The notes: generated from the sequence alone by a model not told the origin. 64,000 nucleotides of DNA from an uncultured Candidatus Saccharibacteria bacterium (GCA_964398815.1 CAYNNZ010000004.1:8074-72073); one strand, 5' to 3'. Counted from the first letter of the stretch, positions 26,318-58,519 are shown. Numbers and translations: made by a program.

Positions 26318-27634
26318 CTATTTCCCTGCCGGCTGGTCGGTCACGCTGACCTTGATTTTTGCTGGGTCCCCAGGGAAATGCTGGGCCCAGAACGGGCGCA
26401 GGACGAGGGTCGCCTTACCCACCTCTGGGAAGGATTCAAGGGCAATTTTGGCGGAATTACGGTCTTTCCCGGCGACTGCTGAGGAAATCTTCCCGGAATC
26501 CACTATCCAGACGATGGTCGTGGAGCCTGACAGATTAAAGGCAAATTCCGTCGCGTCTGGAGCGATGGTCGGCTGAACCGGCTTCACCGTAAGGCCCTCG
26601 ACCGACTTGAGCGTCACGGGCTGGCCACCATAGGTACCGACCGACTTGAATGCGATGTTACGCGCGAGCGCCTCTGCTGGGAATACGACTGCGATAACCT
26701 TGCCAGTCTCGGAGAGCGCCACAGTGCCTGACGCACCCGCAGCATCCGTGCCCGGGGTGAAGGTCGTGAATGACGAGCCCGGAAGCATGATGTAGCCCTC
26801 CGGCACCTTTGTCGCGAGCTCCTTTGCGAGTTCAGCGGAAAGCTTGCCCTGCATGTCGGCATACTGTTTGTCCTTGGTCGCCTGAGCGACTGACGGGCGC
26901 GTACCGGAGAATCCGCCAGTCATAGGGGCATCAGACTTGGCCGTCACCTGATCAAATGCTGCAGAACCCTTCAGGCCCGGCACTGTGAACGACGTAGGGC
27001 CAATATTGTACTTATCGCCTGCTTCGTCCGCATAGACGGTAGTGGTGATGCTGCCGCCGGCCGGAATGGAGACGGTGTCGCGCACACGGAATACCAGCCC
27101 GTCAGCCGTCTGGAAGCGGGTGTTCTTGATGAGGCCCTGAGCCTTCGTCTGGCGGTTCGTAATGGTTATCTTCCCGGATGCTGGGTCTGACGCAGTGACT
27201 GTGCTCTCAGCCGGGACGTTTGCGCTCGCAGTTTTCTCAACTGTAACGAGCTGGAACGGCAAATCGCCAGTGCCGAGCGTGGCCGTCAGGTCAGTTGCCA
27301 CGGTCGCCGAGTTCATAACTGGCGTGATAGTGACCTTTGCGCCCTGGAAGGCGTAGAGGACCACACCGCAGGCGACTATAACGAGGACCGCGATAAGGGC
27401 AGTGCCGATCGGGAATCCACGACCACCACCGAATGAGAAGCGCTTCCTTCTCGGCATCTTCGGCATCGGTGCAGCCGCCTGCATAGGCTCGAGTGGTGCA
27501 GACTCGCGCATCGGCGCGGGAGCAGCAGGACGCATGTCCATGGTGGGGCCGGACGGAGCCGCCGACTGAGCCGGTCCCATGTCCATAGCCTTGCGGCGTG
27601 AGGGCGGAATGATGTCGTTAAGGTCGCGATGCAT
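26318..27634 (-). CDS. Hypothetical single-pass membrane protein (Pro/Ala/Met-rich cytoplasmic N-terminus, one TM, large Thr/Ser/Gly-rich extracytoplasmic domain)
   Basis: 438-aa ORF with TM segment IGTALIAVLVIVACGVVLYAF around residue 85. No recognised catalytic motif. Confidence 0.6.
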   Translation of the reverse strand: MHRDLNDIIPPSRRKAMDMGPAQSAAPSGPTMDMRPAAPAPMRESAPLEPMQAAAPMPKMPRRKRFSFGGGRGFPIGTALIAVLVIVACGVVLYAFQGAKVTITPVMNSATVATDLTATLGTGDLPFQLVTVEKTASANVPAESTVTASDPASGKITITNRQTKAQGLIKNTRFQTADGLVFRVRDTVSIPAGGSITTTVYADEAGDKYNIGPTSFTVPGLKGSAAFDQVTAKSDAPMTGGFSGTRPSVAQATKDKQYADMQGKLSAELAKELATKVPEGYIMLPGSSFTTFTPGTDAAGASGTVALSETGKVIAVVFPAEALARNIAFKSVGTYGGQPVTLKSVEGLTVKPVQPTIAPDATEFAFNLSGSTTIVWIVDSGKISSAVAGKDRNSAKIALESFPEVGKATLVLRPFWAQHFPGDPAKIKVSVTDQPAGK

Positions 27635-34501: not shown

Positions 34502-35023
34502 TTAGTTTCGTTCGATATACTCTCGCGCCATCTGCGCATATAGGTCTGCCTGCTCCTCGGCAGCACTAATGGTCGCCTGCCACTGTTGGCGATATGGTTC
34601 CGGATTGAGCGGCTTCGCTGCGTTTGGATCATCGAGCGAGTCCATGTTCCTTTTTGCCTCTGCGTACTGCGAATTGCGCGCGAGTGTCCGCTCGCGTACC
34701 GCTTGAAGCGCGACTTCCTGTATGAGCTCTGGATTGCCGGCGAGGAATCCATGCTGTCCCAGTTCCTGCTTTAGTTCCGTCGCCATACGTTCAAGACCGT
34801 TGCGATCATTCGGCAGCCCAGCAATGCCACGATCGACAGCCGCGTCGATTGCTCCTTTGCGTGTAATTCGTTCAAGAATCGTTTCTGGGTCGGTTAGACC
34901 CTTCTCTGCATCCTCGATTTCCTCAGGAGCGAGAGTTCGTTCCTGACCCTCTTCTACAACGTGCACCTTGCGAAACGGCTGTTCTATTCCCATGGAGAGA
35001 GTATAGCAATCGATTACTGCCAA
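34502..35023 (-). CDS. Hypothetical protein (173 aa; TTG start, or ATG at 34993)
   Basis: Charged, helical-looking ORF immediately downstream of ung on the same strand. No recognised domain. Confidence 0.45.
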
Positions 35024-35679
35024 TCTATCGGGGTTTGGCCGCTCTCTGTTAGATAGGCGTTTGCCTTGCTGAAGGGTTTGCTCCCGAAAAAGCCGTTATA
35101 CGCGGAAAATGGGGACGGGTGCGGAGATTCAATGACGAGGTGTTTGCTGGTATCGATGAGTGATTTCTTTCCACGTGCGTAGTTCCCCCAGAGGATAAAC
35201 ACGAGATGCTCGCGCTCATCTGAGAGTTTCTTGATTACCGCATCGGTAAATCGCTCCCATCCCTGTCCCTGATGCGAGCCTGCGGCGCCTGCGCGCACCG
35301 TAAGCGTCGCGTTTAGTAGAAGCACTCCCTGCTTGGCCCAGCGCGACAAATCCCCTGATTCGTTCGCTGGCTTTCCGGTGTCTGTCGCAATCTCTTTAAA
35401 TATATTCTGGAGCGATGGCGGATTTCGCACACCTTCTGTAACGGAAAACGAAAGACCATGCGCCTGCTTAGGTCCGTGATAGGGGTCCTGGCCCAGTATG
35501 ACGACTTTCACGGCATCGAACGGCGTTAAGTCGAATGCAGCAAAGAGATTTTTCGGGTGCGGATAGACAGTCGCTGTTTCATATTCCTTCTTAACGAATG
35601 CGGCGAGTTCCTTGAAATACGACTCCTCAAATTCGTTTGCAAGATGTTCCCGCCACGAGGTTTCTATTTTCACTTCCAT
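35014..35679 (-). CDS. ung: Uracil-DNA glycosylase, family 1
   Basis: [22 protein letters not shown] (water-activating loop), [18 protein letters not shown] (Leu-intercalation loop region). Confidence 0.9.
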
Positions 35680-35787
35680 ACAGGAACTATACCAACCACC
35701 AATTAGAGAGACAGGAGTGTTAACCTTGCGATATATCGCAAGGTTAACACTCCGGTTGCGTGAGGTATCTCAATGTCTCAATGAGAG

Positions 35788-36579
35788 TTACTTCTTTACG
35801 ACCTTCATGCCGGCACCATGAAGCAATTTTTTTGCGGCTGTTTCGCGGTAGGGACAGAACTCACATTTCGGACCAGAGGGGGGAATGTCCGAAGAGTCGA
35901 GCGTCTCTTTAATTTTTGGCAGTACGTCATCTATCCAGTCAGCTTTCCCGGTGCTCGGCACCACCGTGACTTCGAACTCCAGCTGCCCGTCGAATGCTTT
36001 CTTATCGGTCGTTGCATTCGCATAGACGAAATATCCGGTATCAGAGACCTTGAATCCGTTATTCCGTAGGAGCCACTGATACACGCCCATCTGGCGCTGA
36101 TACTGCTCATTCCACGATGAGTCCTCGAGCGTGGTGATGGTTCCTGCCTTTGAGGTCGACTTGTAGTCCACGACCATGAGTTCCCCTGCCGGGTTCACCC
36201 AGATGTCGTCCACAGCACCCGAGATAGTGAATCCAGTCGGCTCATGGAAATATTCAACGCCCTCGAAATTTTCCCGCCACGTGTCGATATCCTTATGCTG
36301 ATACGGAACCGCATCGATGCCGTACTGAGTCATGAGTGGATGCGGCGTGCCTGCAGCTCGATGCACATCGAACTCCTTCTTAAAGAGGGCATCTACAGCG
36401 ATGTTGAGAGTGAATGCAGGTCCGCGCGGGCGCCCGGTACCGAGTTTGTTGTCCAAGTAGAAGCAACGCGGACATTCGTTGAATAGCTCGATCTTTGAGC
36501 GCGAGAGGCGCCACTTTGCTCCGCCGTAATTCCAGTCGCTGCTTCTATTTGGGTTGTACTTCTTTACGAAATCGCTCAT
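35788..36579 (-). CDS. PD-(D/E)xK nuclease, Cas4/RecB-like (DUF83) with four-Cys Fe-S cluster
   Basis: N-terminal C-x2-C (ECPRCFYLD), nuclease core VVDYKST (D-x-K) and QMGVYQWLL (QxxxY), C-terminal CEFCPY. No CRISPR array or cas genes nearby. Confidence 0.75.
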   Translation of the reverse strand: MSDFVKKYNPNRSSDWNYGGAKWRLSRSKIELFNECPRCFYLDNKLGTGRPRGPAFTLNIAVDALFKKEFDVHRAAGTPHPLMTQYGIDAVPYQHKDIDTWRENFEGVEYFHEPTGFTISGAVDDIWVNPAGELMVVDYKSTSKAGTITTLEDSSWNEQYQRQMGVYQWLLRNNGFKVSDTGYFVYANATTDKKAFDGQLEFEVTVVPSTGKADWIDDVLPKIKETLDSSDIPPSGPKCEFCPYRETAAKKLLHGAGMKVVKK

Positions 36580-36582
36580 GCC

Positions 36583-37419
36583 TTAGGCGTAACTATTACA
36601 CAAGGAATTCGCCTCGGCCAATATGCCCCCGATGCGCTCCGGAGATATGGAAATAGCGCGCAACAGGTCGCGATTCTGGCGAACCTGCTCGCAGGTAACT
36701 ACGCCCTGATCTATGAGTAGTCGCTTTTCCGCCTTCTTCAACATAGTGAGCGCAGTAATGGGATAGAGACCGGTCGCTACAATACGGTCATACAGACTTC
36801 CCTCTGACGGATAACTCCAGCCGAGGAGTTGGATACCGGAGCACTTGGCGAATTGGACCGCATCACGCGTGAATTTCGTATTGGTGATGAGGAATCCATG
36901 GTCCACCTTACAGGTCTTGTCCTCTTTCGGGTCGCACTGCCAGATATCGTCGAATCGCGCCTTCACATAGAGTGCGACTTTTACGTCGGTCTTGTAGCCG
37001 GGGTCGTTGTGGTATTTCAGTTCTGCTGCGAGATATTCTCCCTCGCGGTGCGCGTACACGTCCACTTCATGGGTAACGCACTTTCCGGGAATCATGCGCC
37101 GATACTCGACTTCCCATCCCTCTGCTTTGAATAATTCAGAAATGTAATTCTCGAATGGGTGGCCGGAAGGACCGAATTCAAAAAGCGCACGGCGTAGGCT
37201 GTAGCGCGCCGCTGCAGGACGTGCATCATGGCGCAGCATCTGGAATGCGCGCTTGTATATTTCTTGCGTCATCGCGCCGGCTGCAATGGAGCCCTCGATG
37301 GTATGTCGGATGCGCTCTGCAGTGTGCGTTGTCGCGCCCGCGCGGCGTAGCGACCATTCGAGCTTCATCCCGTCGAATGGCTCGACGCTTCCATCGGTCT
37401 TAACAATCTCAACGGACAT
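36583..37419 (-). CDS. ATP-cone domain fused to Mrr-like restriction-endonuclease-fold domain
   Basis: N-terminus MSVEIVKTDGSVEPFDGMKLEWSLRRAG is ATP-cone-like. Core GHPFENYISELFKAEGWEVEY...HEVDVYAHREGEYLAAELKYH is Mrr_cat/PD-(D/E)xK-like. TAATG overlap with the mnmA stop. Confidence 0.7.
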   Translation of the reverse strand: MSVEIVKTDGSVEPFDGMKLEWSLRRAGATTHTAERIRHTIEGSIAAGAMTQEIYKRAFQMLRHDARPAAARYSLRRALFEFGPSGHPFENYISELFKAEGWEVEYRRMIPGKCVTHEVDVYAHREGEYLAAELKYHNDPGYKTDVKVALYVKARFDDIWQCDPKEDKTCKVDHGFLITNTKFTRDAVQFAKCSGIQLLGWSYPSEGSLYDRIVATGLYPITALTMLKKAEKRLLIDQGVVTCEQVRQNRDLLRAISISPERIGGILAEANSLCNSYA

Positions 37420-38441
37420 TACTCGATGATACCACCGCCAACTACGGTATCTCCGTTGTATATGACGAGTGACTGGCCCGAAGCAGCTGGCTCAGGGAGT
37501 AACGTATCCGGCGTGAACGTCTGTTCGGTATAGGTGCCTGACACTAAAGGACCATGGTAGCGATATTGCGCCTCTACTTTCTGTCCAGGAGTTTGGAACC
37601 AATTTGCTTCGGTAAGTCTGATTGCGAACGCTGGTGCCTGTGAGGCGCGTTCATTCGAGACGACGAGCGTGTTTGTCTGGATGTCCTTCGCGATTACGTA
37701 CCATGGGCCTGCTGTAGCATCCTGTAGCGGCGCGCGTTCACCAAGTGTGTAGAGAAGCGCTCCGTCATGCGTTCCTACCTTCTTCCCCATTGAGTCCACG
37801 GCCTCGCCGGGCGTAACGGGAAATTCCGCACGCAGAAAATCATCCATCGAGACAGGTCCGAGGAAGCATATGCCCTGGCTGTCGCGCTTTTCGGCATTCG
37901 GAAGCCCCAGACTCTTTGCTTCGGTTCGTACTGCGGATTTATGCATTCCGCCGAGCGGAAAAAGGGTGTGAACGAGCGCTTCCTTGCCTATCGCCCAGAG
38001 GAAATAGCTCTGGTCCTTTTCTGGATCTACGCCTCGTAGAAGGCGACCGTCTTCTTGCCGCGCATAATGGCCAGTGGCGATGAAATCTGCACCATGTTCC
38101 ATCGCAAATCGATAGAACACGCCGAATTTCACGTCGCGATTGCACATAATGTCGGGGTTAGGCGTTCGGCCAGCACCATATTCCCGTATGAGGTAGTCGA
38201 TGACCGACTGTTTATATTCCTTCGATGCATCAAGCGTGTGGAATGGTATGCGCAGGTGCGCCGCAACGCGCATGGCGTCCTTTCTATCCGCTGCCCAGGT
38301 GCACGGCAGACCTTCCGGGTACCACCCCTTAATGAATACGCCTACGACTTCTGCGCCTGACTTCTGCAGTAGTGCAGCAGTGACCGCAGAGTCTACTCCG
38401 CCTGAGAGTCCGACGAATATTTTCTTACCCGCGACGTTCAT
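37419..38441 (-). CDS. mnmA: tRNA-specific 2-thiouridylase MnmA
   Basis: PP-loop KIFVGLSGGVDSAV and the rest of the MnmA fold (…IATGHYAR…). Start at ATG 38441 with an AGGGA RBS. Confidence 0.9.
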   Translation of the reverse strand: MNVAGKKIFVGLSGGVDSAVTAALLQKSGAEVVGVFIKGWYPEGLPCTWAADRKDAMRVAAHLRIPFHTLDASKEYKQSVIDYLIREYGAGRTPNPDIMCNRDVKFGVFYRFAMEHGADFIATGHYARQEDGRLLRGVDPEKDQSYFLWAIGKEALVHTLFPLGGMHKSAVRTEAKSLGLPNAEKRDSQGICFLGPVSMDDFLRAEFPVTPGEAVDSMGKKVGTHDGALLYTLGERAPLQDATAGPWYVIAKDIQTNTLVVSNERASQAPAFAIRLTEANWFQTPGQKVEAQYRYHGPLVSGTYTEQTFTPDTLLPEPAASGQSLVIYNGDTVVGGGIIE

Positions 38442-38530
38442 GTTCCCTGTATAGCATCCTTGACAGACGGTAGGAAGTTGTAATGATTTAGGTATCAGAA
38501 CGACATTCAAAGTCTGAACCCTGAAAGGAG

Positions 38531-42508: not shown

Positions 42509-45346
42509 TTAGACCACAAGATTGAGGATTCGGCCGGGCACGTAAATGACACGTGAAGGCCTCACTTTACCAAGTGAAGTCTTCACACTGGCAATCTGGA
42601 TGGCCATATCCACTGCATCTGCCTCGGATGCATCCGGAGCGATGGTTATTTCCCCACGTTTCTTGCCGTTTACCTGCACGGTAAGCACCACCTCATCTGC
42701 GACGAGAAGCGACTCATCCGCTGTCGGCCATGCCGCAGCGTGGACACTTCCCTCTTCTCCCAGAGTGCCCCAGAGATGCTCTGTGAGATGCGGAGCAAAC
42801 GGTGCGAGCAAAACCAGAAGGGTACGAACTGCCTGTCGCGGTACCGCTGGCAGTGCTTCGAGGTCGCGCACGAGCACCATGAGCGCAGAGAGGGCGGTAT
42901 TGAATTTAAAGCGGTCGATTTCGCCAGTTACTTTACTCGTCGCCAGTGCGAGTGCGCGTAGTGTTGCTTCGTTCGGCTCGCTGTCGTCTGCCTTACTGGC
43001 GAGTGCATACACGCGATCGAGGAATTTGCGCATCGACAGCGTTCCGTCCAGATTCCATGGGTAGTGACCTGGCTCGTTATATGGACCGATGAATGCGAGG
43101 TACATGCGCACCGCGTCAGCGCCGAATTTCGCCACTACTTCGTCCGGGTTCACGACATTCCCCTTCGACTTACTCATCTTCGCGCCGTCCGTGCCGAGCA
43201 CGATGCCGCGATTGAATCGTTCGGAGAATGGTTCCGACACCGGTGAGAGTGCGAGGTCGTAGAGCACCTTCGTAAAGAACCGTGCATACAGGAGATGCAT
43301 CGTTGTGTGCTCGCTGCCGCCTGAGTAGCGGTCTATCGGCATCCACTTCTTCATGAGCGCAGCGTCGGAGAAATCATGCTCATCCTTCGGGTCGAGATAG
43401 CGGAAGAAATACCAGGATGAGTCTACGAAGGTATCGAGCGTGTCGTATTCCGGTGTCCAGCCTTCGCCGAATATGCGCGTAACGCGCTCCTGGAGTTCTT
43501 TAGAAGACGCGAGCGGGGACTTTCCTTCGCCTGCAGCACCCGGCGTCATGTCGACATCTTCCGGAAGCAACCACGGGAGATGCTCAGATGGGATAGGGTG
43601 CGGATTACCTTCTGGGTCATAGACGACCGGTATCGGACAGCCCCAGTATCGCTGTCGACCAACTGACCAATCGCGTATACGGAACTGCTTCACCCGCTCG
43701 CCTCCGGCGGCCTCAGCGATATCCCAGATGGCTTCGCGGTTTGGCTTTCCGGTAAAGTCTCCGGAATTCGTGAGCAGACCATCGCCAGTGTAATGACCCT
43801 TTCCGAGGAATCGGGCGAGTGCGTACTGATGCTGGTCATCATGTATCTCCTTCACCGCAACCTCCGGCGTTACCCACTCCACGGTGAATTTACCCTTCTC
43901 ATCTTCTTCGAGCTCCTGCTCGCTCTGTGTATCGGATGCGAGCTTGAAATGCAGAATGGTCGTATGCGCGAGCGTTGCTTGATTCTTCGAGAATGCAAAA
44001 TAGGAATGATGGACCTTTTCGTCCGCACGTTCGATGAGCTCTAATTCCTTGTAGCCGGTCTCTTCGCCTATTTCTCGGCTCGCGGTAATTGCTGGGTCTT
44101 CACCCTCATTTACTGTCCCGCCCACGAGCAGGCGCCCACCGAGCTCTTTCGGCCAGTTGATGGTGAGCACTTTACCGTTGTGCTCGACAACGGCGACGAT
44201 TTTCTCCTTATGTTTCGGGTCGACTTGCTCTTCACCGGTAATCGGGTCGATGACGTAGCGAATTGGTAGGTTGTACTTCTTCGCGAACTCATAATCGCGC
44301 TCGTCGTGCGCAGGCACCGCCATAACAGCGCCTGTACCGTATGAGGCAAGTACGTAATCAGCGACATAGACCGGAATGGATTCCTTGGTCGCAGGGTTTG
44401 TTGCAGTGAGGCCATCGAGCACCACACCAGTCTTCTCTTTGTTCTCACTGCGCTCGCGCTCGGTCTTCTTCCCGGTCGCCTTCTGATATGCGCGAACCGC
44501 ATCGACATTGGTCGCGTGCGCAAGAAGCGATTCGAGTGCCGGGTGCTCCGGAGCGAGTACGAGGTAGGTGGCGCCATAGAGGGTGTCAGGACGGGTAGTG
44601 AACACCTGGATATCCGTAGTCTCCGATCCAGTCGCAACCGGGAATGTAATTTTCGCGCCGTCTGACTGCCCTATCCACGCGCGCTGCGCTTCTTTTATCT
44701 CATTCGGCCAGGCGAGCCCGTCGAGGTCAGCAAGGAGACGCTCCGCGTACGCGGTGATTTTGAGGAACCACTGCGTGAGCATCTTGTCTTCGACTTCATG
44801 TCCGCAGCGTTCGCATTTTCCATCCACTACCTGCTCGTTGGCGAGCACCGTCTTATCATTCGGGCACCACTTCACCGATGCGAGCCTGCGCTCTGCGAGT
44901 CCGTGCTCGAGGAACTTCGTGAAGAGCCACTGCGTCCACTTGTAGTAGGAAGGGTCGCAGGTGATGACTTCCTTCGACCAATCCATGGATGCGCCCATCG
45001 TCTCCAGCTGGCGACGCATGTTCGCCATGTTGTCGTAGGTCCATTTCTTCGGGTCGAGACCACGCTTTATCGCCGCATTCTCAGCCGGCAGCCCGAACGC
45101 GTCGAATCCCATCGGGAAGAGTACGTTCTTCCCTGCCATGCGCAGTTTGCGGGCGTAGATGTCCGTAAGTGCGAACGCATACCAGTGCCCGATATGCAGA
45201 TCTCCTGATGGATACGGAAATTCAAAGAGGAGGTAGTACTTCTCTTTGGTCTCATCCGTGAGGTCGGTCTCGTACAGATTGAGGCCTGCCCACTTTTGGC
45301 GGGCTGCCTGTTCTATCTCTACGTGATTGAACGACTCTCGCGCCAT
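42509..45346 (-). CDS. leuS: Leucyl-tRNA synthetase with a NUDIX hydrolase domain inserted in the CP1/editing region
   Basis: HIGH (PSGDLHIGHWYAF), TTRPDT editing motif, AVMAVPAHDERD, KMSKS (GAKMSKSKGNVV) and C-terminal VIYVPGRILNLVV. 945 aa, with a roughly 150-aa insertion between PIRYVIDPITGEE and GDGLLTNSGDFTG. Confidence 0.9.
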   Translation of the reverse strand: MARESFNHVEIEQAARQKWAGLNLYETDLTDETKEKYYLLFEFPYPSGDLHIGHWYAFALTDIYARKLRMAGKNVLFPMGFDAFGLPAENAAIKRGLDPKKWTYDNMANMRRQLETMGASMDWSKEVITCDPSYYKWTQWLFTKFLEHGLAERRLASVKWCPNDKTVLANEQVVDGKCERCGHEVEDKMLTQWFLKITAYAERLLADLDGLAWPNEIKEAQRAWIGQSDGAKITFPVATGSETTDIQVFTTRPDTLYGATYLVLAPEHPALESLLAHATNVDAVRAYQKATGKKTERERSENKEKTGVVLDGLTATNPATKESIPVYVADYVLASYGTGAVMAVPAHDERDYEFAKKYNLPIRYVIDPITGEEQVDPKHKEKIVAVVEHNGKVLTINWPKELGGRLLVGGTVNEGEDPAITASREIGEETGYKELELIERADEKVHHSYFAFSKNQATLAHTTILHFKLASDTQSEQELEEDEKGKFTVEWVTPEVAVKEIHDDQHQYALARFLGKGHYTGDGLLTNSGDFTGKPNREAIWDIAEAAGGERVKQFRIRDWSVGRQRYWGCPIPVVYDPEGNPHPIPSEHLPWLLPEDVDMTPGAAGEGKSPLASSKELQERVTRIFGEGWTPEYDTLDTFVDSSWYFFRYLDPKDEHDFSDAALMKKWMPIDRYSGGSEHTTMHLLYARFFTKVLYDLALSPVSEPFSERFNRGIVLGTDGAKMSKSKGNVVNPDEVVAKFGADAVRMYLAFIGPYNEPGHYPWNLDGTLSMRKFLDRVYALASKADDSEPNEATLRALALATSKVTGEIDRFKFNTALSALMVLVRDLEALPAVPRQAVRTLLVLLAPFAPHLTEHLWGTLGEEGSVHAAAWPTADESLLVADEVVLTVQVNGKKRGEITIAPDASEADAVDMAIQIASVKTSLGKVRPSRVIYVPGRILNLVV
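43787..44254 (-). other. NUDIX hydrolase domain inserted within leuS (Nudix box at 44051..44122)
   Basis: Own translation of the minus strand gives GGTVNEGEDPAITASREIGEETGY, a perfect match to the Nudix box Gx5Ex7REUxEExGU. It is flanked by beta-strand-like segments (KIVAVVEHNGKVLTINWPK ... FTVEWVTPEVAV). Confidence 0.85.
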
Positions 45347-49687: not shown

Positions 49688-50269
49688 CTACTTAGCTGCG
49701 CGCGCAAGCGACGCAATGGCCTTCAGATAGCGTGCTTTGCGTGCTGGGGTGCAACTCTCTGAATTTCCAAACTGCGTAAGGCTCACCTTATAGCCAGACA
49801 TACCAAGAGTGGCGTAGGAGATTTCGTTCGTGAAGTCACCGAATACGAGACGTATGAAAATTGGCGGCATCTTGGAAAGCGTAATGACTCGCGCCGTCTT
49901 CCCCGTCATCATGCGGTCCCATCCCATACCGTTCTTCCAGAAATGGAACGCAAAGCTGGGAAGCCAGATACGGTCAAAGAATCCCTTGAGTAGCGCAGGC
50001 ATTGCCGACCACCAGACTGGATACAGGAGCACGAAGTGGTCCGCCCACTTCATATCCTCCTGCACTTTCTTCAGGTCCGGCTCGAGTTCTTGAATTACCT
50101 TGTAGCCCTTGTGGAGAATGGGGTCGAACGAAAGGTCCCCGATATTCGCACGTCGCACGTAGTGGCCAGCATCGGCGGCCGCCTTTTCGTATGCATCGGC
50201 AAGTTCGTTCGTAAGTGTACCGTCCTTATCGGGATTACCCATCAGGATATAGATGTTCTTCTGCTTCAT
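49688..50269 (-). CDS. NAD(P)H-dependent FMN reductase / flavodoxin-like fold oxidoreductase
   Basis: MKQKNIYILMGNPDKDGTLTNELADAY...HFVLLYPVWWSAMPALLKGFFDR; Flavodoxin_2 / NAD(P)H-quinone-reductase-like. 193 aa. Confidence 0.7.
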   Translation of the reverse strand: MKQKNIYILMGNPDKDGTLTNELADAYEKAAADAGHYVRRANIGDLSFDPILHKGYKVIQELEPDLKKVQEDMKWADHFVLLYPVWWSAMPALLKGFFDRIWLPSFAFHFWKNGMGWDRMMTGKTARVITLSKMPPIFIRLVFGDFTNEISYATLGMSGYKVSLTQFGNSESCTPARKARYLKAIASLARAAK

Positions 50270-50327
50270 GCCGTAACTTTATCATGCGACCACCCCCATC
50301 TCCGTGTCGACTTTAGGGCGACTGGAA

Positions 50328-50361
50328 AAGTTAATAGTGCGATATATCGCACTATTAACTT
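50328..50361. promoter_or_regulatory. Perfect 34-bp palindrome (17-bp inverted repeat, no spacer)
   Basis: AAGTTAATAGTGCGATA|TATCGCACTATTAACTT. I checked that the sequence equals its own reverse complement. It lies between the 77-aa gene and the reductase gene. Confidence 0.6.
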
Positions 50362-50403
50362 TCTGTGTTGGTGGTGCCATCTATCGCAAGCCGTAGCGAA
50401 GAC

Positions 50404-57979: not shown

Positions 57980-58519
57980 CTACTGCTTTGGCTTTTTGAG
58001 CGCTTCGAGATCAGCGAGGAGTTTCTGCACATCGCTTGAGAGCTGCTCGAGAAGTGCCGCCTCATCGAGTGCGGCTTTCTCCCGTTTCTCTTTCCGCTGC
58101 TTCTGCTGCGTCACTTTCTGTTCCGCCTTCTCCTCTTCGCTCATTTCCTCGACATCTTCCTGAATCTCGTCGATGTCCTCACTGATTTCCTCGATGTCTT
58201 CCTGAATGTCCTCGACATCCTCCCCGAGCTCTTCGACATCTTCCTGAATTTCGTCGATGTCCTCCTCGACTTCGCGCAGCTGCTCGGTGTTACGGTTGAC
58301 CGCAATCTGGATGAAAATAGCCATATATATCGCCTCGAGCGAGACGACGGTGGTGAGGACCAGCAGCATCATCTGCCACTCCACGATGCCGAGCAGGGAG
58401 AGCAGGAAACACGCCACGAAAAAAATCGAGTGCAAAATCAAGGACGCTACCGATCCGATGGATGCGATAGCGGCCTCGATGAATGGAGTTTTCGGGCGCT
58501 CCTTTCTCATCAATCGCAC
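57980..58519 (-). CDS. Membrane protein with C-terminal acidic coiled-coil tandem repeats
   Basis: Two TM helices followed by (E/D)DI(D/E)EIQEDVEE repeats (DNA 58150..58273), then a Lys-rich tail. Confidence 0.6.
   Translation of the reverse strand: MRLMRKERPKTPFIEAAIASIGSVASLILHSIFFVACFLLSLLGIVEWQMMLLVLTTVVSLEAIYMAIFIQIAVNRNTEQLREVEEDIDEIQEDVEELGEDVEDIQEDIEEISEDIDEIQEDVEEMSEEEKAEQKVTQQKQRKEKREKAALDEAALLEQLSSDVQKLLADLEALKKPKQ
58150..58273. repeat. Imperfect 36-nt tandem repeat (about 3.5 copies) within the coding sequence
   Basis: CTCGACATCTTCCTGAAT(C/G/T)TCGTCGATGTCCTC... repeated; encodes EDIDEIQEDVEE units. Confidence 0.6.

Follow-up and report, generated by a model that had tools for sequence, protein, structure and literature searches.

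An ATP-cone nuclease and two neighbouring DNA-processing genes in a conserved core gene array of Paceibacteria

Why do genes for two predicted nucleases and a uracil-DNA glycosylase (UDG) stand side by side downstream of mnmA, and do they work together? The question arises from a 64,000-nucleotide (nt) stretch of DNA from an uncultured Candidatus Saccharibacteria bacterium (GCA_964398815.1 CAYNNZ010000004.1:8074-72073), hereafter the window, whose close homologs carry the names Parcubacteria, Paceibacterota or Patescibacteria. A preliminary description had read the cluster either as a DNA-repair or uracil-processing module or as a defence or competence-associated system. Comparison with related genomes shows that the locus is a conserved stretch of the core chromosome of Paceibacteria (Parcubacteria, in the candidate phyla radiation, CPR). 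The explanation that we favour, to which we give a probability of roughly 55%, is that these are housekeeping genome-maintenance enzymes inherited as neighbours in a long co-directional core array, that they are neither a defence nor a mobile system, and that they need not form one pathway. The open reading frames (ORFs) concerned are the following:

37419-38510, minus strand: mnmA (tRNA 2-thiouridylase), the upstream gene (Pfam tRNA_Me_trans, 229 bits)
36583-37419, minus strand: ATP-cone nuclease of 278 amino acids (aa), with an ATP-cone, an AF1548/Mrr_cat PD-(D/E)xK core and an AF1548-like C-terminal domain
35788-36579, minus strand: stand-alone Cas4/AddB-like PD-(D/E)xK nuclease of 263 aa, with a CxxC...CxxC metal-cluster signature
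35014-35679, minus strand: ung, family-1 UDG of 221 aa (NCBIfam NF003592)
34502-35023, minus strand: species-specific hypothetical protein, 173 aa from a TTG start or 163 aa from an ATG at 34993

We compared 80 related loci (one genome per species, nuclease identity 59-88%), in which the proteins of the window were placed by tblastn. The mnmA gene lies directly upstream of the nuclease gene in 78 of these loci, and the Cas4-like gene and ung lie downstream of it in 75 and 74, respectively, always on the same strand. As 74-78 of 80 related genomes show this order and this orientation, the arrangement is not due to chance. The preliminary description had called for such a check of gene-neighbourhood conservation and had said that a lack of co-occurrence in other genomes would speak against its proposal; co-occurrence is in fact conserved. 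The same loci also retain the sigma-like gene, DUF8128 and often mltG upstream, and alaS downstream. In the window, the co-directional array runs leuS, sigma-like gene, DUF8128, mltG, mnmA, nuclease, Cas4-like gene, ung, peptidases, alaS. The encoded housekeeping neighbours are thus LeuRS, a Sigma70_r4/HARE-HTH (sigma-like) protein, a DUF8128 protein, YceG/MltG and MnmA on one side, and two M16 peptidases and AlaRS on the other. Since the conserved block includes the sigma-like gene, mltG and alaS, it represents core-genome synteny and not a mobile island. The GC content is flat across the region, no tRNA was found within about 22 kb of the cluster, and near it there are no genes for a methylase, a reader domain or a mobile element and no cas genes.

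A metagenome scan seeded with distant family members yielded CPR loci with nucleases 41-49% identical to that of the window, in which the order is still sigma-like gene, DUF8128, mltG, mnmA, nuclease, Cas4-like gene, MGMT, in some cases ung, and alaS. Among the 54 distant metagenome loci that are at least 6 kb long, 38 have mnmA, 28 the Cas4-like gene, 22 MGMT and 10 ung. Some CPR loci hold the nuclease with neither the Cas4-like gene nor ung nearby. Mean identity across relatives is 74.4% for AlaRS, 71.6% for Ung, 70.8% for the nuclease, 63.1% for MnmA and 46% for MltG. The nuclease is about as conserved as AlaRS and Ung; this points to strong purifying selection and sets it apart from typical nucleases of restriction or defence. 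The co-occurrence is real and old, yet it reflects the synteny of the whole core block.

Spacing within the block is uneven. Median gaps among the 80 close loci are 27 nt between mnmA and the nuclease, 57 nt between the nuclease and the Cas4-like gene, and 292 nt from there to ung. The gap between the two nucleases is <150 nt in 59 of 75 loci. That between the Cas4-like gene and ung ranges from 5 to 2561 nt and takes up unrelated inserts; spacing so variable speaks against ung being closely coupled to both nucleases. Clustering the gap ORFs and scanning them with Pfam, we found small membrane proteins between mnmA and the nuclease in 20 loci and between the two nucleases in 7; between ung and alaS there is an M13 peptidase in 40 loci or an M16 pair in 18. 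Between the Cas4-like gene and ung, 20 of 72 close loci and 22 of the 54 distant loci have an 86-aa MGMT/Ogt-type gene (PF01035, PCHRV motif), L008, L088, L095 and L145 being examples; the window has none there. This recurrent MGMT lends the neighbourhood a DNA-repair flavour and gives some support to the earlier repair-module proposal.

In the window, the five ORFs follow each other head to tail on the minus strand, and their coordinates bear out that the three DNA-processing genes are co-oriented downstream of mnmA. The claim that they are tightly packed, with overlapping or near-overlapping ends, holds for two of the junctions, all of which were read directly. The TAA of mnmA and the ATG of the nuclease gene have one base in common, GAGTAATG (TAATG), a 1-nt overlap, and the nuclease and Cas4-like genes are separated by a 3-nt spacer (TAA-GGC-ATG). 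It does not hold for the third, where a spacer of 108 nt leaves the Cas4-like gene and ung without overlap. The ORF after ung overlaps it by 10 nt if the TTG start is used, or follows it after 20 nt if the ATG at 34993 is used; on the near-identical contig L085 the equivalent ATG was called, giving a 163-aa gene. Between the genes from mnmA through the 173-aa ORF we found no terminator-like site on the minus strand: the sole terminator-scan match in this stretch is a weak stem within the Cas4-like coding sequence, and the promoter/terminator scan gave a result no different from that with shuffled sequence. The nuclease gene, the Cas4-like gene and ung are probably co-transcribed with mnmA.

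The spacer ahead of ung contains one further element:

35711-35756, unstranded: near-perfect 23+23-nt palindrome (46 nt) in the spacer between the Cas4-like gene and ung, 32-77 nt upstream of the ung start

A 36-nt palindrome at 50327-50362, upstream of a Flavodoxin_2/NAD(P)H-quinone-reductase-like gene (49688-50269), has the 14-nt core TGCGATATATCGCA and flanking TTAAC arms in common with it; a second, degenerate copy lies 37 nt away, at 50375-50388. The palindrome upstream of ung may be an operator that ung shares with the Flavodoxin_2-like gene. As a conserved operator we rejected it, because in relatives it is present only on same-strain contigs.

Pfam assigns the 278-aa protein an ATP-cone (PF03477, 27.5 bits against a cutoff of 25.8) and Mrr_cat (27 bits against 21), and its residues 92-273 match AF1548 in the PDB (1y88, E=1.6e-27). 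The fusion of an ATP-cone to a restriction-endonuclease-fold core, as first described, is thereby confirmed. Its parts are:

37186-37410, minus strand: ATP-cone domain, aa 4-78 (PF03477)
36820-37161, minus strand: PD-(D/E)xK catalytic core, aa ~87-200, with D120/E133/K135
36604-36765, minus strand: C-terminal helical domain of AF1548 type, aa 219-272 (sub-cutoff PF22357 match, E=0.0005-0.007; alignable to the C-terminus of AF1548)

A helix-hairpin-helix or other known fold for the C-terminal domain was considered and dropped, as Pfam yields AF1548-like_C only. D120, E133 and K135 are invariant in two homolog alignments (A1 and A4) and align to D38, E51 and K53 of AF1548. These are the predicted catalytic residues of AF1548, which the 2007 Global Ocean Sampling paper predicts to be a restriction-type endonuclease (PMC1821046). 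AF1548 itself (Archaeoglobus fulgidus, 1Y88) is a structural-genomics protein that resembles our nuclease in its core, its C-terminal helical domain and the conserved predicted catalytic D/E/K. It differs in having no ATP-cone, and the Paceibacteria nucleases have an extra Cys-containing insert at residues ~160-172.

An AlphaFold2 model built on 46 diverse homologs reached a pLDDT of 90.8 and a pTM of 0.85; a first model, from a shallow alignment (20 sequences, 70-89% identity), had a pLDDT of 60.8 and was discarded. When the better model was compared with the PDB by Foldseek, the top match was AF1548 (1y88, E=1.7e-14, TM 0.77 normalised to target). It was followed by the ATP-cones of NrdR and ribonucleotide reductases, on which the modelled protein superposes with a root-mean-square deviation of 1.8 Å over 81 residues. 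Further matches were the nuclease domains of Can2/Card1/Cdn1 and of MspJI/AspBHI. Neither a signal peptide nor a membrane anchor is present in the protein.

Can the cone still bind a nucleotide? In a BLASTP comparison, residues I5, K7, T8, E13, P14, F15, K19, L20 and R26 of the nuclease align with V51, K53, S54, E59, P60, F61, K65, L66 and R72 of Escherichia coli NrdR. The NrdR numbering in this comparison agrees with that of bioRxiv 10.1101/2025.03.28.645925. Most of the NrdR lid residues cover the adenine, form a hydrophobic pocket, recognise N6 or touch the phosphates, and R72 contacts the gatekeeper Tyr131 (bioRxiv 10.1101/2025.03.28.645925). In the 46 sequences K7 never varies, and F15, K19 and L20 hardly ever do. 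Because its lid residues match the nucleotide contacts of NrdR, the cone looks competent to bind an adenine nucleotide. The alignments show that both the predicted catalytic D-ExK and the putative adenine-binding lid residues are intact. We conclude that this protein belongs, over its full length, to a large bacterial family in which an NrdR-like ATP-cone is fused to an AF1548-type core and C-terminal domain.

The likeness to NrdR lies in the N-terminal 80 residues, which in the model superpose on NrdR cones at 1.8 Å, and in the conserved lid; by analogy, ATP/dATP-dependent oligomerisation that controls a DNA-directed activity is a likely further resemblance. The effector differs, being a PD-(D/E)xK domain on the C-terminal side of the cone, whereas in NrdR a Zn-ribbon DNA-binding domain is N-terminal. 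The cone of the nuclease starts at residue 4 with no Zn-ribbon ahead of it, and an equivalent of Tyr131, the outer-site gatekeeper of NrdR, could not be placed. Mrr and the type IV enzymes MspJI and AspBHI share the catalytic fold, as seen in the Mrr_cat score and the Foldseek matches. Unlike them, the nuclease has no N-terminal modified-DNA reader domain and is encoded by a slowly evolving core gene in fixed synteny. The CARF-nuclease effectors Can2, Card1 and Cdn1 also join an adenine-nucleotide-binding sensor to a PD-(D/E)xK nuclease of similar structure. Their sensor is CARF and not an ATP-cone, the ligand expected here is ATP or dATP and not cyclic oligoadenylate, and our nuclease has no CRISPR type III context.

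We then asked how widespread this architecture is. An exhaustive HMMER search of 50%-identity representatives returned 1102 clusters at E<=1e-3 and 420 at E<=1e-30, and nearly all of the 150 best listed members are 270-300 aa long and match end to end. Members from Algoriphagus, Cyclobacterium, Saprospiraceae and other Bacteroidota all have ATP-cone, Mrr_cat and AF1548-like_C in profile searches, and one representative comes from the acidobacterium Aridibacter, so that the family spans Patescibacteria, Bacteroidota and Acidobacteriota. In the source annotations its members are called "ATP cone domain-containing protein", "restriction endonuclease", "ATPase" or "Holliday junction resolvase". 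Our search of the literature library found only the AF1548 prediction (PMC1821046) and no paper describing the ATP-cone nuclease fusion, in agreement with the earlier remark that it is poorly characterised.

Outside CPR the nuclease has other neighbours. We examined eight annotated Bacteroidota-type loci, representing seven distinct neighbourhoods (L083 and L084 are near-duplicates), and clustered 17 non-CPR loci, made up of three annotated Bacteroidota-type loci and 14 metagenome loci. P-type cation ATPases stand beside the nuclease in 6 of the 17, often abutting it, and a beta-CASP/RMMBL metallo-hydrolase (beta-CASP RNase) does so in 6 of the 17. Other neighbours are Cus/Czc efflux components, Usp proteins, type-II GAPDH and AAA_28/dNK-like kinases, the last adjoining the nuclease in two loci (L163 and L169). 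One locus has thymidine/AMP-phosphorylase-like and phosphoribosyl-pyrophosphate (PRPP)-synthetase-like genes nearby. This stress- and metal-island setting in Bacteroidota-type genomes was seen in L081-L084, a subset of L131-L165, and L168-L171. Neither a Cas4-like gene nor ung was ever beside the nuclease in the non-CPR loci examined (eight annotated, 17 clustered). The trio is therefore a lineage-specific synteny of Paceibacteria and not a portable module, and the family-level function of the ATP-cone nuclease is not obviously DNA repair.

The 263-aa protein scores 59.3 bits with Pfam PDDEXK_1 (cutoff 22) and falls under the curated Cas4 cutoffs (Pfam Cas_Cas4 20.5 against 22.7, TIGR00372 34.7 against 65). 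PADLOC Cas4 models match it at 1e-10, and a profile search of the PDB gave a single, marginal similarity, to the Cas4 structure 4r5q (E=0.058). C36-x2-C39, C239-x2-C242, D124/D125, D138-Y-K140 and Q163...Y167 do not vary between the two divergent gene types described below. Canonically, Cas4 and AddB proteins have one Cys near the N-terminus and three near the C-terminus (C...CxxCx5C, as in SSO0001, Pcal_0546 and AddB). The 263-aa protein is like these enzymes in its PD-(D/E)xK motifs, QxxxY, an N-terminal 'S-x-S...CPR' motif and four Cys, and differs from them as a 2+2 variant (CxxC...CxxC) with an invariant Ala where the canonical third C-terminal Cys would be. Score and motifs together show a predicted stand-alone Cas4/AddB-type PD-(D/E)xK nuclease with four invariant Cys, in line with the initial assignment. 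Unlike Cas4, it has no neighbouring cas genes or CRISPR array: its neighbours are housekeeping genes and no CRISPR-like repeats or array were found in the 64-kb window, so a CRISPR context, whose absence had already been remarked on, was rejected.

The Cas4-like gene is dimorphic. Among the 75 syntenic loci, 41 carry a gene 70-83% identical to that of the window and 34 one that is 46-56% identical, with none intermediate, and which of these roughly 50%-identical types a locus carries is independent of the relatedness between loci. For instance, L004 and L005 have nucleases 83-87% identical to that of the window, and their nucleotide homology to the window ends at the nuclease stop (36583/36596) and resumes at the ung start (35680/35646). 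For L001-L003 and L067, homology runs uninterrupted through the gene. This dimorphism is the sole feature of the locus that hints at conflict-driven evolution.

Profile scores show the 221-aa protein to be, as expected, an ordinary family-1 UDG (Ung): 336.9 bits with NF003592 against a cutoff of 162, and 278 with TIGR00628 against 185.75. Like the E. coli and human enzymes, it matches the equivalog-level model and has the predicted water-activating loop GQDPYH. Its intercalation loop is HPSPFS, with Phe for Leu, instead of the canonical HPSPLS, and this Phe is common to the Ung of 63 of 74 Paceibacteria relatives. The 173-aa ORF that follows had been called an unknown, and so it appears: it has no match in Pfam, NCBIfam, PADLOC or PHROG and no homolog at the 80 related loci. 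Its product is acidic, its 90% sequence cluster has 6 members only, and it occupies a gap that is ~90 nt long in relatives where the M16 peptidase genes come directly after ung.

How might these enzymes act? By analogy with NrdR and ribonucleotide reductases, the ATP-cone would bind ATP and/or dATP, and binding would rearrange the oligomers of the nuclease. The change in oligomer would in turn gate cleavage and so link it to the adenine-nucleotide status of the cell; candidate substrates are DNA that is structured or damaged, and RNA. The Cas4-like protein would serve recombination or repair as an exonuclease with a metal cluster (probably iron-sulphur, Fe-S), acting on DNA ends or flaps. A broader proposal, which we put forward tentatively as possible but not probable, is that the ATP-cone/AF1548 proteins are a widespread class of nucleases switched by ATP/dATP through NrdR-like oligomerisation. 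In Paceibacteria, such a nuclease would be a core enzyme that ties DNA or RNA cleavage to nucleotide and energy status, with the dimorphic, cassette-swapped Cas4-like protein as its partner.

Of the rival explanations, the one that survives best is a single cooperating pathway of uracil and alkylation repair, in which Ung (and MGMT in relatives) would act on the base, the ATP-cone nuclease would cut the abasic or structured intermediate, and the Cas4-like protein would resect. The close spacing of the two nucleases (3 nt in the window, and within the limit given above in most loci) is consistent with this, as is the recurrence of the order nuclease, Cas4-like gene, MGMT and ung across deep divergence. 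We nevertheless hold such a pathway to be unlikely: the distance from the Cas4-like gene to ung varies widely and admits unrelated inserts, ung has its own upstream palindrome and spacer, some CPR loci have the nuclease with neither of its partners, and the non-CPR homologs are never paired with Ung or a Cas4-like protein.

Slightly harder to credit is a role in nucleotide economy or salvage, in which the nuclease would sense low ATP or dATP and degrade imported or damaged nucleic acid to feed salvage. ATP-cones are known sensors of adenine (deoxy)nucleotide pools, as NrdR and ribonucleotide reductase structures show, and CPR organisms are reported to be unable to synthesise nucleotides (bioRxiv 10.64898/2026.07.13.738296). 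The non-CPR neighbourhoods with a beta-CASP RNase, AAA_28/dNK-like genes or the phosphorylase-like and PRPP-synthetase-like pair fit as well, although this context comes from other phyla and is anecdotal. Against salvage, the nuclease has neither a signal peptide nor a membrane anchor, the cluster adjoins no genes for competence or uptake, and an unregulated intracellular DNase would be dangerous.

Defence, which the preliminary description had considered along with competence, is not borne out. PADLOC made no defence-system call, and its only match to the nuclease is a marginal one, to the Mrr-like domain of ZorD (E=0.0035). PHROGs gave no match, no relative of the nuclease was confirmed among the 2.9 million contigs of IMG/VR, and the BFVD structures yielded single-domain matches only, to Mrr-type nucleases or ribonucleotide reductase cones; on these grounds a phage origin was rejected. 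The location in a core syntenic block with mnmA, mltG, the sigma-like gene and alaS and the slow evolution of the nuclease likewise speak against defence or competence, and in our reading the locus represents neither a defence nor a mobile system; defence we regard as unlikely. A new anti-phage system, with an Mrr-like type IV or abortive-infection nuclease triggered by nucleotide depletion and the Cas4-like protein as accessory, is very improbable: the Mrr_cat fold, the structural similarity to MspJI/AspBHI and Can2/Card1/Cdn1, the weak ZorD match and the cassette-like dimorphism of the Cas4-like gene favour it, but the gene is highly conserved in a core syntenic location, there is no modification-reading domain, methylase, cas gene or CRISPR array, no relative was found in the viral contigs of IMG/VR, and the neighbours in other phyla are metal and stress genes, not defence islands.

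Several observations also weigh against the explanation that we favour, that of housekeeping genome-maintenance enzymes inherited as neighbours. In the streamlined genomes of CPR, synteny spans unrelated genes, so adjacency is no proof of common function. The non-CPR contexts of the nuclease (P-type ATPases, Cus/Czc, Usp, beta-CASP RNase, GAPDH) are unlike those of DNA repair, and its substrate may be DNA or RNA. We found no paper reporting activity, ligand binding or expression for any ATP-cone nuclease. The 2+2 Cys of the Cas4-like protein could hold Zn and not an Fe-S cluster. Between close relatives, one type of its gene has replaced the other precisely from border to border, and such cassette swapping is more typical of conflict genes than of repair genes.

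Three further features of the window lie apart from the cluster. The leucyl-tRNA synthetase (945 aa; 42509-45346, minus strand) has a NUDIX insert (PF00293, residues 386-511, E=9e-11) after its editing domain, and the near-identical contig L085 gives the same matches. A 438-aa protein (26318-27634, minus strand) has a weak Baseplate_J match (E=1.4e-4, 21.7 bits against a cutoff of 21.1), and the adjoining 412-aa protein has no match; the pair may be a remnant of a phage-tail-like or contractile system. At 58143-58273, a 21-nt (7-codon) tandem repeat of about 5.5 copies lies within the ORF at 57980-58519 (minus strand), which encodes a 179-aa coiled-coil-like protein with weak DUF1003/DUF948 matches.

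Every component of the cluster belongs to a catalogued family, and the window adds another member to the ATP-cone nuclease family, not a new kind of system. The ATP-cone has so far been understood only as the deoxynucleoside-triphosphate-pool sensor of ribonucleotide reductases and NrdR. If the nuclease is indeed gated by its ATP-cone, the cleavage of nucleic acids would join the activities under adenine-nucleotide allostery. At 50% identity this large family counts at least 420 clusters, its architecture is fixed, and it merits biochemical study, for which the locus offers a good, well-defined candidate. In CPR bacteria, reported to lack nucleotide synthesis, this nuclease is among the most conserved genes of its neighbourhood.

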